NCBI GenBank assembly: GCA_018696595.1
Contig: JABHQW010000008.1
Coordinates: 256,001 to 320,000, forward strand
Direction: 5' to 3'
Length of the DNA: 64,000 bases
Origin: Candidatus Woesearchaeota archaeon
GTDB lineage: Archaea > Nanobdellota > Nanobdellia > Woesearchaeales > GW2011-AR9
Positions 28,013-36,753 of this stretch are shown here, piece after piece. The translations under genes were made by a program, and so were the position numbers. The notes beneath the pieces were generated by a model. The model saw only the letters and a program-made list of their open reading frames with translations. It did not search any database and had not been told where the DNA came from. How positions within the stretch are numbered: the first letter of the stretch is position 1; each line of letters opens with the position of its first letter.

Positions 28013-28058
28013 AGTGTTAAGAAATCGTCTGTTTATATAAAAATATTCTTTTCTATAG

Positions 28059-28232
28059 CTTCATCCAGAATAATAACATTTTGTATACTGCCTGCAATAG
28101 GCGCATTTTTGGAGTAGGGCACGGCACCTTAGATTTTACTCATAAAATTCGTAAAATGTGCCTCCATTGGCGCCACTCCAAAAATCCACGCGCCGGCACG
28201 CAGTATACAAATTCATTTTATTCTAGATGAAG
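28059..28232 (-). ncRNA. 174-nt nested hairpin carrying the GC-CAAUGGA-GGCAC/GUGCC-GU-GC motif
   Basis: Arms CTTCATCCAGAATAA/TTATTCTAGATGAAG, TTTGTATACTGC/GCAGTATACAAA, TTTTTGGAGT/ACTCCAAAAA, GGCAC/GTGCC; mismatches are G.U on minus. Confidence 0.6.
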
Positions 28233-28243
28233 TTCTTTTCTAT

Positions 28244-30865
28244 CTATTCAATCTCAAATCGAAGTATAGCAGCAATGCCGCCTAAATCTCTAAGTTGTGC
28301 CCCTTCTCTAGTTTCTGTAGAAATAATCCTAACTTCTGCACCACCTGCTTGTGCCTTCTCTTCCAAATCAAAAATCTTATTTTCAGGAATACTCTCTGAA
28401 ATTAGTAAAATGTCAACTGCGGCCATTTCTAAAGCTTTCAATGTTTCTTTCTCCCCATAAGTTGCTTTTTTGGGCGTATCTCTAAGAGTGCCTAAGAATT
28501 GTTGCATAATTTTTTTCTCGTGAGCAATTTCTTCTTCTGATAAAAGGTCTTCAGATTTTTCTAATAATTCTTGCAATCCAAAATCTCCGGTATACGATAA
28601 ATCTTTAGTACCAATAATTTTTTTCTTTACATCTCCAGTAATATAATCTTTATTCATAAAATCGTTAATCGTAACACCGGGGCCACCAATAATAATGCCT
28701 TTCAAATCTTTTCCAAGAGGTAAGAATTGATCTTTCATATATTCTGCAATTTTTTTAAAATGATCTTTAGCAGCACCTTCTCTTAGACGAGCGAATCTTT
28801 GAGCAGAATTATGAACTATTAATCCATTTGCTATGAAGTTTTGATTGCCAACAGAAATGTCAATCATTTCAGTTTCTTCATTTCTTTTTTCAATATTAGC
28901 AATCTTAACCGGCAAAATGGGGCTATTATAAACTTCTTCTAATTGTGTATATAATTTCTTATCTTTAACACAAGACAAGATAGAACTCTTAAATGTTTGT
29001 TTACTCATCATTCTCTCATTTCTAAAGAAGTTTGTTACTTTTGGAAATTGGTTTGTGTTGTAACCAGCGTTTTCAATTATCTTTCTGATTTTCGAACCAG
29101 AAGCAATAATTTGTCTGACATTACTCTTATTTGATCTTAAATCAATACTCTTTTCTAATTTTTGTGATTTTTTATTACAAGTAAATCCAATTTGTTCTTT
29201 AAATAATTCTAAAGATTTCTTTTCTGTAATGTCAATTGTAAAGCGAGGATTATCACTTAGTGGATTTCTTCTATTGTCATATTCATGTAAAGAAGAAATG
29301 ATTCCAAATCTTAACAAAGCCATTTGTATTTGTTGTGCCAATATTTTGTTATTTATTCCAAATGCAGCCTGTTTTCTTTGAGAAACATAACCTTCTGCAT
29401 CAAAAAATCCTTTCACAAAACTTGCAAGAATTTTATTTGGAGAATTTAATATTTTTTCGGGAATTAAAGAATCTCTTGCTTTTTTTATTTCTGGAAATTC
29501 TGTTTGAATTAATCTAACTAATGGTCTACTTGTAAATCTTAACTGGTGGTAATTCTTACTTTCTCTAAATTTATAACTACAATTCAGATCAAAGTGTTGA
29601 TCAAACAATTCTTTATAATGTAAAGCAAGATCTTTACTTTGTTCAAAGAAAGTAATTCTATCTTTTTCTATACAACCATCACCCATTAGATAACCTAAAA
29701 ATTGAGCGAGATTTGCTTCAAGAAGAACCGGCAATTTGATGTTTTTGTATAGTTCAGGAGTAGTATAGTTATTTAGGAAATCATAAAAATCAATTTCTAA
29801 GGCCGCACAAAGCTTTTGCAAAGGAATTCTTCCAATATTTCTTTTTCCTTTTTCGTAAGTTGATATTGCTGTTTGGGTAAGCCCAGTAAGTTTTGCAACA
29901 TCTCTCTGAAATAAACTTTTTTCTTCTCGTTTTCTCTTGATTTGGTTTTGTCCTTCTTTATTTATTTTGAAAGAATTATAATATTGAACTGCTTTGATGG
30001 TTTGAAGTTTACCTTCTACTTCTATTTTTTCAGGCATAATTAGAAAATCTCCTTCTTGAAGTTCTTCAGCGGCTTTTTCTTTGATTCCATTCTCAGTTTT
30101 CACAAAGAAAATATGGTCTTTAGAAGATTCTACTTGTAGTCTTGGATATTTTGTTGTGATCTTGTAAACTTCATGTTTTTTGGCATTCCATTTATCTGTA
30201 ATTGGTGAATCTTTAATTGAGTGACTTTCCATAACCATACTCTTGAGCACAATTGGGTTATGGGAATTTTCAATTTTTAAGATGTCTCCCTGAGTGGATT
30301 GAATTAATGTTCCTTTCATACAACATTGTCCACCTGCTTTAGTTTTTCCAGGAACTTCCGAATGTGTTTTTTGCATTGGGACAATAGATTTTCCTTTCAA
30401 CAGAGCAATGGTTGCATCCCTTCTATCCATAACAACAAGACCATAAACTTCTTTGTTAACCATCATTTCTTCTAATAAATCAGTTACAAAGTTTTTATCA
30501 CAACGATAAATACGTGTGTTTAATTGGATTGGTGGTTCAATACTCCAAACTCGAACATCTTGTTTACCTTCTCCTGCGGCAACGTTTCCAGAAAAAACCG
30601 CAAAACCATTTTCTGGTGTGTTACCAATAGTTCTTAAATGTTGAATCATTTTTTCCAAAGCATTCTGGACATTCTTTCTAGTAGCAGCAGATTTAATGTT
30701 TGAAGCGGTTCCTTGCTCTTCTGCTAGATGTTGAATAATTTTTGTCATATCATAACCAGAAGGGATGTAAACTGTAACAAACTCTGTATGTGGAGCCTTA
30801 TGGCTACGTAACTCACTTACTATTTTTTTCAGTTTCAGTTTCTCTTGTGCGGTTATCGCTGCCAT
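28244..30865 (-). CDS. prf1: Peptide chain release factor aRF1 containing an intein
   Basis: TASNIKS, YRCD, GKTKAGGQ|intein|SAQRFARLRE, GGAEVRIISTETREGAQL; spliced length 367 aa. Confidence 0.95.
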   Translation of the reverse strand: MAAITAQEKLKLKKIVSELRSHKAPHTEFVTVYIPSGYDMTKIIQHLAEEQGTASNIKSAATRKNVQNALEKMIQHLRTIGNTPENGFAVFSGNVAAGEGKQDVRVWSIEPPIQLNTRIYRCDKNFVTDLLEEMMVNKEVYGLVVMDRRDATIALLKGKSIVPMQKTHSEVPGKTKAGGQCCMKGTLIQSTQGDILKIENSHNPIVLKSMVMESHSIKDSPITDKWNAKKHEVYKITTKYPRLQVESSKDHIFFVKTENGIKEKAAEELQEGDFLIMPEKIEVEGKLQTIKAVQYYNSFKINKEGQNQIKRKREEKSLFQRDVAKLTGLTQTAISTYEKGKRNIGRIPLQKLCAALEIDFYDFLNNYTTPELYKNIKLPVLLEANLAQFLGYLMGDGCIEKDRITFFEQSKDLALHYKELFDQHFDLNCSYKFRESKNYHQLRFTSRPLVRLIQTEFPEIKKARDSLIPEKILNSPNKILASFVKGFFDAEGYVSQRKQAAFGINNKILAQQIQMALLRFGIISSLHEYDNRRNPLSDNPRFTIDITEKKSLELFKEQIGFTCNKKSQKLEKSIDLRSNKSNVRQIIASGSKIRKIIENAGYNTNQFPKVTNFFRNERMMSKQTFKSSILSCVKDKKLYTQLEEVYNSPILPVKIANIEKRNEETEMIDISVGNQNFIANGLIVHNSAQRFARLREGAAKDHFKKIAEYMKDQFLPLGKDLKGIIIGGPGVTINDFMNKDYITGDVKKKIIGTKDLSYTGDFGLQELLEKSEDLLSEEEIAHEKKIMQQFLGTLRDTPKKATYGEKETLKALEMAAVDILLISESIPENKIFDLEEKAQAGGAEVRIISTETREGAQLRDLGGIAAILRFEIE
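28808..30325 (-). mobile_element. Intein (506 aa) with HTH insert and LAGLIDADG homing endonuclease
   Basis: Block A CCMKGT, block B SKDH, FLGYLMGDG and FVKGFFDAEG, block F MIDISV..QNFIANG, terminal HN followed by Ser+1. Confidence 0.93.
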
Positions 30866-36594: not shown

Positions 36595-36641
36595 GGAAAC
36601 TCTACAGAAACGTAAGCTATATAAACTTTCGCTTAAAAAGT

Positions 36642-36730
36642 ATGAGTTTAGTTAGCTTTGCCAATGGAGGCACATTTTTTTCCATTGTTTGAAAAAAATA
36701 ATCGTGCCGTGCAAGCTTAACTAAACACAT
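36642..36730 (+). ncRNA. Hairpin carrying the second copy of the GC-CAAUGGA-GGCAC/GUGCC-GU-GC motif
   Basis: GTTTAGTTA/TAACTAAAC, GCTT(T)GC/GCAAGC, GGCAC/GTGCC, ATTTTTTTC/GAAAAAAAT; 36660-36678 identical to reverse complement of 28153-28171. Confidence 0.6.
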
Positions 36731-36753
36731 TCCTTAAAATCGAGGGTTTTATA

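Follow-up and report, generated by a model that had tools for sequence, protein, structure and literature searches.

The DNA analysed here is a stretch of 64,000 nucleotides from a Candidatus Woesearchaeota genome of 1.19 Mb and is called the window throughout. On its minus strand, at 28244-30865, lies the aRF1 gene (873 aa), which is interrupted between eRF1 domains 1 and 2 by an intein that carries a LAGLIDADG homing-endonuclease domain and an HTH domain. A sequence-only reading of the window had described a 174-nt hairpin in the 3′ region of this gene, and both the hairpin and the aRF1 gene upstream of it are borne out. When folded and compared with shuffled sequences, the minus strand of 28059-28232 forms a single hairpin of 174 nt at -79.1 kcal/mol (z = -9.3). 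On the plus strand the fold is only slightly less stable (-69.4 kcal/mol, z = -9.2), and this near-equality was a first sign that we were dealing with palindromic DNA and not with an RNA read from one strand. The element, referred to below as copy 1, stands between aRF1 upstream and an NFACT homologue downstream. A second copy lies beside the Nop5 gene. Both copies and their sequences are as first described, and a pattern made of the two conserved halves finds exactly two matches in the window, namely 28119-28171 (minus strand) and 36660-36712 (plus strand), while 100 shuffles gave none.

The mobile unit of copy 1 extends two bases beyond the first-noted span on either side. Its inverted termini and 9-bp direct repeats delimit a complete 178-bp non-autonomous transposon at 28057-28234, a MITE of what we call the T1 type, in its nested form. 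The repeated 9 bp (ATAGAAAAG on the minus strand) are perfect and flank copy 1 on both sides, one copy of this target-site duplication (28235-28243) starting one base past the aRF1 stop codon and the other (28048-28056) preceding the NFACT gene's TATA-like box by about 8 nt. The terminal inverted repeats have arms of 15 nt each; in the minus-strand reading the left arm (28218-28232) pairs with the right arm (28059-28073) and includes one U.G pair. These termini match those of siblings in a congener (G002) that bear 9-bp duplications, and they are related both to the GGCTTCATCC.. termini of that genome and to the GGCTCTGTCC.. termini of an IS5-family IS at locus L387 of another genome. Further in, an inner arm (..TGTATACTG..) at 28080-28091 pairs with 28200-28211 and is homologous to a subterminal hairpin around the transposase start codon of the same IS. 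The centre is occupied by an intact core module on the minus strand (28119-28171; 85.9 bits with our covariance model) that runs from a 5′ box through an apical hairpin to a 3′ box. This inner core is placed inverted within the apical stem of an outer, decayed core, whose 5′ half (28092-28105) and 3′ half (28190-28199) lie on the plus strand and were recognised by comparison with the intact outer cores of G002 (L040, L074). An un-nested form occurs in metagenome contigs, with a joint from 28111 to 28179, and in marine metagenome contigs that hold other copies the match to copy 1 ends at 28059/28060 and at 28228. Copy 1 has no empty-site control, since neither congener has the same surroundings of aRF1 and the synteny is broken.

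Such a control is provided by copy 2, a complete 93-bp MITE with termini of a second type (T2) at 36640-36732 on the plus strand, which has inserted downstream of the TATA box and ahead of the start codon of a 93-aa gene; this gene and Nop5 are divergent. Copy 2 has inverted arms of about 17 nt, folds at -27.3 kcal/mol (z = -4.2) and carries the core module at 36660-36712 on the plus strand (76.3 bits). The 8-bp duplication CTTAAAA(A/T) is found at either side, as CTTAAAAA at 36632-36639 and, with one mismatch, as CTTAAAAT at 36733-36740; these limits were set from the sequence, from the comparison with the congeners and from one contig of the marine metagenome run X8. In both congeners (G001 and G002) the orthologous promoter has a single CTTAG.. 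and copy 2 is absent. The X8 contig presents the empty allele in nature, with a joint from 36639 to 36748, and it stands among contigs that have a near-identical flank. Copy 2 is an insertion polymorphism. The 93-aa gene starts about 24 nt past the TATA box in both congeners, and copy 2 adds a hairpin of about 100 nt between the two; an insertion has thereby shifted a promoter about 100 bp from its gene.

Both copies belong to a larger family. The 13-nt box is repeated across the genome, and a pattern search and a covariance model, both proposed by the sequence-only reading, found the further copies. With a covariance model built from 16 copies we count 22-24 copies in the window's genome (G000), every one of them intergenic, and the neighbouring genes are unrelated from one copy to the next. 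Among 23 other sampled genomes of the same family, ten have 1-39 copies, and the distribution is patchy (0-39 overall), with 39 copies in one congener and none in another. The same model found no copy in 17 genomes from other families of the order. In a pattern scan of 185,000 species the true matches were confined to Woesearchaeota-type MAGs from marine and groundwater sources; bacterial pattern matches reached at most 26 bits with the covariance model and are chance matches, and viral contigs scanned for the core and two of the termini gave single matches at chance level only. Some of the relatives are filed as 'uncultured Methanosarcinales archaeon', whereas by gene content and kinship they are of Woesearchaeota type, and these record names look wrong. 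Our literature search found no paper on MITEs in Woesearchaeota. Our verdict is that the element represents an undescribed MITE family of marine Woesearchaeota archaea that carries a conserved folded module, the latter being unexplained.

The assignment to mobile DNA is supported by the behaviour of the copies at their ends. Siblings in four other genera (G018, G021, G015 and G012) give alignments that end exactly at the inverted termini and are followed by different 8-9-bp duplications, and a nested subfamily in G002, G016 and G018 likewise has exact ends and duplications of its own; 8-9-bp duplications are seen in more than 12 copies of G002, G012, G015, G016, G018 and G021. Several old copies in G000 show no target-site duplication. 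The nested copy C3:349851 of G000 is missing at the orthologous sites in G001 and G002. Several features by which MITEs are recognised are found, namely short length (178 and 93 bp), no coding frame of their own (the only one starts at an ATG missing from other copies), inverted termini, duplications of fixed length and empty sites, and the family includes bursts of near-identical siblings. The element is mobile DNA and not a free-standing RNA gene, and we put at about 0.8 the probability that the copies are MITEs, copy 1 of 178 bp and copy 2 of 93 bp with the second terminal type, served by a transposase acting in trans. Inverted termini, target-site duplications and empty sites mark the element as a transposon copy, and the proposal that as a whole it is a functional RNA or a single-strand recognition element is therefore unsupported.

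Two observations bear on the history of single sites. One spacer between two orthologous genes, compared at L003:1400-1830, L405 and L409, was hit independently, as G000 and G002 have different family members in it and G001 has none. In G018 three enlarged T1 elements of 243-297 bp (L363, L364 and L366), each with an 8-bp duplication of its own, contain extra hairpins within the core loop or a 150-nt apical insert, and a 327-aa frame without a Pfam match (L365:227-1210, minus strand) lies directly beside a truncated T1 element of the same genome.

The core occurs with four sets of termini, of at least two kinds that are unrelated to each other. T1 (GGNNCTGTCCAGAAT, with a GGCTTCATCC variant), the type of copy 1, is related to T3 (with ..GTCAAGTT), and T2 (GTACGTATTTAGTT), the type of copy 2, is related to T4 (GTAAGTGATATG). 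An autonomous relative with T1 termini was found in another genus. It is the IS at L387:1376-2310 in genome G040, 936 bp long, which is bounded at each end by the T1 terminus GGCTCTGTCCAGAA and flanked on either side by the 8-bp duplication TAATCTAT. It codes for a 244-aa IS5-family transposase (NF033579, E = 2e-30; PF01609, E = 3.5e-11, 43.7 bits), whose NF033579 score of 106 bits is below the equivalog cut-off of 140. Between terminus and gene this IS has a hairpin with the start codon in its loop, and copy 1 has the arms of this hairpin (TGTATACTG) as its own inner arms (28080-28091 and 28200-28211). Since termini and inner arms are shared, copy 1 is evidently an IS5-family derivative in which the core has taken the place of the hairpin's loop, and its descent from an IS5-family lineage is demonstrated. 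The sequence-only reading had named a match to an IS end or to a known Rfam family as a result that would speak against it; the former exists for the outer part of copy 1, and the latter was not found. The hairpin shape follows from this build of inverted termini, then IS-derived subterminal hairpin arms, then the central core module. A DDE transposase supplied in trans would have cut out the element and pasted it with a staggered target cut of 8-9 bp.

The window's genome gave no match to the four transposase families searched (PF01609, PF13610, PF00872 and PF01797), so that its copies are probably stranded at present. Because the contigs of this assembly overlap end to end, an IS lost at the contig breaks is unlikely. 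For the T2 and T4 termini our search for an autonomous partner found none, the candidates for T2 in G203 and G017 being MITEs or a chance match inside a gene. A link to IS6 was considered and set aside, as PF13610 occurs in six of 31 genomes but not in G000 and the match in G021 has no such termini. The IS256 transposase (PF00872) likewise shows no link with the element.

The best-conserved part of these elements is their centre. The asymmetric core, G-CCAANNGA-GGCRC ... GYGCC-GUG-C, does not vary between elements whose termini are of at least two unrelated kinds. As read from 72 copies, it consists of an unpaired pyrimidine and a closing G-C pair, a 5′ loop CC(A/C)A-NN-GA that faces GUG, a 5-bp helix that covaries at three positions (GGCAC, GGCGC, GGGGC, GGUAC, GGGAC, AGCAC, GCCAC), an invariant A-U pair, a bulge of 4-5 nt of free sequence on the 3′ strand, and an apical part that is free in sequence and ranges from 20 to 150 nt or more. 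Some 20 nucleotides of the core are the same in 11 or more genera, with all four terminus sets and in marine as well as groundwater lineages, whereas the stems, the apical parts and the termini have been exchanged. The observation that the outer stems differ in sequence yet still pair holds across the family: among 83 distinct copies from at least 11 genomes, 96.2% of the cells are paired, and 15 of 19 pairs change on both sides. The alignment has a covariation score of 0.64; shuffling lowers it to 0.165, and sliding the partners lowers it to 0.09-0.14. Extra hairpins are added at fixed points of the core loop to give three-way-junction variants, and in nested forms an inverted second core occupies the apical stem of the first. 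The four nested copies in G000 have identical interiors and different, yet still complementary, termini, which is the reverse of what is expected of a simple MITE. A DDE transposase acting on double-stranded ends explains neither the concerted change of the arms nor the fact that a central asymmetric loop is the best-conserved part. It leaves equally unaccounted for the constancy of the loop bases across genera and terminus kinds and the pattern of the four nested copies. Intrastrand correction in the hairpin might maintain the complementarity of the arms, but unpaired bases would gain no protection from it.

The core constitutes a module of its own, because the termini occur without it and it occurs with unrelated termini. 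Elements with the T1 terminus but without the core are present in 72 of 151 genomes of the order, where a reversed control gave almost no matches; one such core-less element, of 130 bp with the duplication AAACAACC, is L373. T2 termini are abundant in G009 (88 matches) and G017 (28), and neither genome has a match to the core. The interiors of these T2 elements and of minimal 36-48-bp elements carry a shorter relative of the core loop, CCAAGAGG. The minimal palindromes, found in G006, G009 and G017 (L396, L397 and L403:2653-2698), consist only of two T2 termini and a loop that holds CCAAGAGG or a close variant; identical minimal elements at two loci of G006 suggest that they, too, move.

What the core does is a matter on which we can offer graded readings. 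Tentatively, we place first a cis-acting role of the core in folded DNA: extruded as a hairpin or cruciform, it would form a putative protein recognition site that aids the persistence or spread of the element. Such a role would explain why the core is intact in lineages that spread and why its orientation follows neither genes nor replication arms. In tandem gene contexts nine copies point with the gene and nine against it; a further 13 copies lie in spacers between divergent genes and three between convergent ones. Core orientation also shows no link with the replication arms when the contigs are joined and the origin is placed at the orc1/cdc6 gene and the GC3-skew switch (right arm, 4 vs 5). 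The stems are 95-96% Watson-Crick, and G.U makes up 2.4% of pairs; the excess of G.U over A.C (19 vs 10) is not significant (p = 0.14). The G.U, gene-orientation and Rfam tests give no support to a strand-specific RNA role; their outcome suits a hairpin or cruciform formed by the DNA, and equally the absence of any role. The earlier idea that a conserved core with exchangeable stems makes a folded recognition element stays alive for the core module only, where these tests gave no sign of a strand-specific RNA role. Adjacent copies on one contig are mostly co-oriented (16 of 19 pairs, on C3 and C6 of G000 and C1 of G014); this co-orientation follows neither gene direction nor replication arm and may be due to chance or to local hopping.

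A broader reading, which we consider possible but somewhat doubtful, is that the core is a self-standing module, either a folded single-strand ligand (DNA or RNA) for a Woesearchaeota protein or a small catalytic RNA, and that it was captured by at least two unrelated transposon lineages. Equally doubtful is its corollary that selection keeps the core while termini and stems change freely. In its strongest form the mobilising machinery would read the hairpin itself and not the terminal sequence.

It seems rather unlikely that the core is an RNA-level module within the MITE, that is, a site of protein binding or processing, or a small ribozyme, which would work in read-through transcripts or as a small RNA. 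Such a role would suit the invariant unpaired nucleotides that stand beside helices covarying at three positions of the 5-bp helix, the extra helices at fixed points of the loop with their three-way-junction variants, the few arm differences that are G.U on the motif strand and the position of some copies about 30 nt downstream of TATA-like boxes. Against it, Rfam has no match to the core even at E = 10, the G.U count and the even split of orientations to flanking genes are as given above, and nested copies carry the motif on both strands. By inspection of the 72 copies the loop fits neither a k-turn, where the invariant U opposite the first G takes the place of the essential A expected and the bulge has 5 nt in place of 3, nor a bulge-helix-bulge, since the bulges lie 5-7 bp apart and not 4. 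An 11-nt tetraloop receptor was rejected in the same way, and a pseudoknot in which the 5′ loop pairs with the apical loop is compatible with copy 2 alone.

Less likely still is a core without function, its constancy being due to recent descent from a few masters or to gene conversion that homogenises the centre; the complementarity of the arms would on this account, just as improbably in our estimate, be kept by intrastrand template switching or by mismatch correction in the hairpin. The almost pure Watson-Crick stems are what copying or correction would leave, as opposed to selection on RNA, conversion of the centre could produce the four G000 copies with identical interiors and different termini, and the bursts of near-identical siblings speak for recent descent. 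These processes do not readily account for about 20 core nucleotides that stay invariant over at least 11 genera, four terminus sets and both marine and groundwater lineages. Mismatch correction would, moreover, leave the unpaired loop bases unprotected, and the related loop CCAAGAGG persists in minimal 36-48-bp elements of other genomes. We continue to favour, as a tentative reading, a cis-acting role of the core in folded DNA.

Other identities for the whole element can be largely set aside. It is very improbable that the element, in place of being mobile DNA, constitutes an independent gene for a structured non-coding RNA or controls aRF1 or the NFACT gene as a riboregulator, a class that the sequence-only reading had listed among its alternatives. 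A GC-rich hairpin in an AT-rich spacer with strong fold z-scores and covariation would be expected of such a gene, but the target-site duplications, the empty sites and the siblings at unrelated loci contradict it, as do the unrelated neighbour genes of each copy and the range of 0-39 copies among close relatives. No Rfam 15 family reaches its gathering score in the window, matches with E up to 10 around both copies are at chance level with none on the core, and the window has no tRNA genes. We give marginally less credit again to mobilisation by a Y1 (HUH) transposase, as in single-strand elements of the REP/REPIN or IS200/IS605 type. The asymmetric bulge in the hairpin and the Y1 genes in some genomes of the family would suit it; elements of that kind make no target-site duplication, whereas these do, their orientation does not track the replication arms, and no Y1 gene (PF01797) was found in G000, G012, G014 or G015, the last three of which also carry the element. 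Of the suggestion of a REPIN/MITE-type element the MITE half was therefore right and the REPIN half fails, the RAYT or Y1 gene that had been sought being absent from the window's genome. The mini-protein (MEAHF...) can be dismissed almost entirely, for although an ATG stands in the conserved box of both window copies, it is lost in many others (CCAAAGGA, CCAATTGA, CCAAAAGA) and the downstream frames and lengths differ. A crude k-mer scan of G000 for CRISPR-like arrays, whose repeats the core might have mimicked, found none.

The closest relatives among known systems are IS5-family ISs and their MITE derivatives. IS5-derived MITEs of archaea include SM1-SM4 of Sulfolobus and haloarchaeal MITEs. 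Like the elements described here, the IS5-family derivatives are short and non-coding, have inverted termini starting with GG and 8-9-bp duplications, occur in many dispersed intergenic copies and are related to a full IS with the same termini and a DDE transposase. Our elements differ from them in that a central asymmetric hairpin loop, and not the termini, is best conserved, that the same centre occurs with unrelated termini, that the arms change in concert, and that the four searched transposase families were not found in a genome with about 23 copies. Correia elements (NEMIS/CREE) of Neisseria are similar as long-hairpin MITEs near promoters and gene ends with a conserved centre; they hold a central IHF site and their transcripts are cut by RNase III. 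They are bacterial, however, duplicate TA and have fixed termini. ERIC/IRU and the pneumococcal BOX, RUP and SPRITE elements share with ours an imperfect palindrome with a conserved centre, modularity and compensatory stem changes. Those elements are believed to function, or at least to be under selection, inside transcripts as RNA, whereas ours show no orientation bias, no G.U excess and clear transposon ends. REP/REPIN sequences with RAYT and the PATEs of IS200/IS605 are likewise dispersed hairpins in which an asymmetry marks one strand, but they make no target duplication, need Y1 and have an orientation that follows replication, none of which holds here. Integron attC sites resemble the core in being conserved as a folded single strand with unpaired bases, with stems and a variable terminal loop that are free to change; they differ in forming arrays beside an integrase, with conserved basal boxes and no duplications, while our elements are single and dispersed and are conserved in their middle.

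As a transposon copy 1 is ordinary, and it is the constancy of the folded centre amid differing ends that is unexplained. The usual view of MITEs, by which nothing but the termini counts, sits badly with elements that conserve their centre more strongly than their ends and have this centre in common although their ends differ. Should the core turn out to be a recognition structure, it would indicate that this uncultivated archaeal lineage has a host or transposon factor not yet recognised, and it would serve as a simple marker for tracking the elements. For annotation, GC-rich hairpins of this kind in DPANN genomes are not to be labelled as RNA genes or as regulators of adjacent genes, as they mark transposon insertions, often at promoter edges.

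The wider survey of G000 gave some further observations. Contig ends of this assembly overlap by about 140 nt (C1/C6, C3/C7, C4/C7, C6/C8 and C2/C4), by which it can be joined into two long scaffolds plus C5. Outside the window, a 1.3-kb spacer upstream of the only orc1/cdc6 gene (L381:900-2340, corresponding to C3:209.9-211.3 kb) has a very AT-rich stretch, two 26-nt direct repeats and a sign change of the strand-corrected GC3 skew, and is likely to be the replication origin. Mimicry of origin boxes by the core was considered and rejected, the candidate origin repeats sharing with it just ATGGAG, at positions that vary among copies. The origin spacer itself contains a degenerate member of the family.
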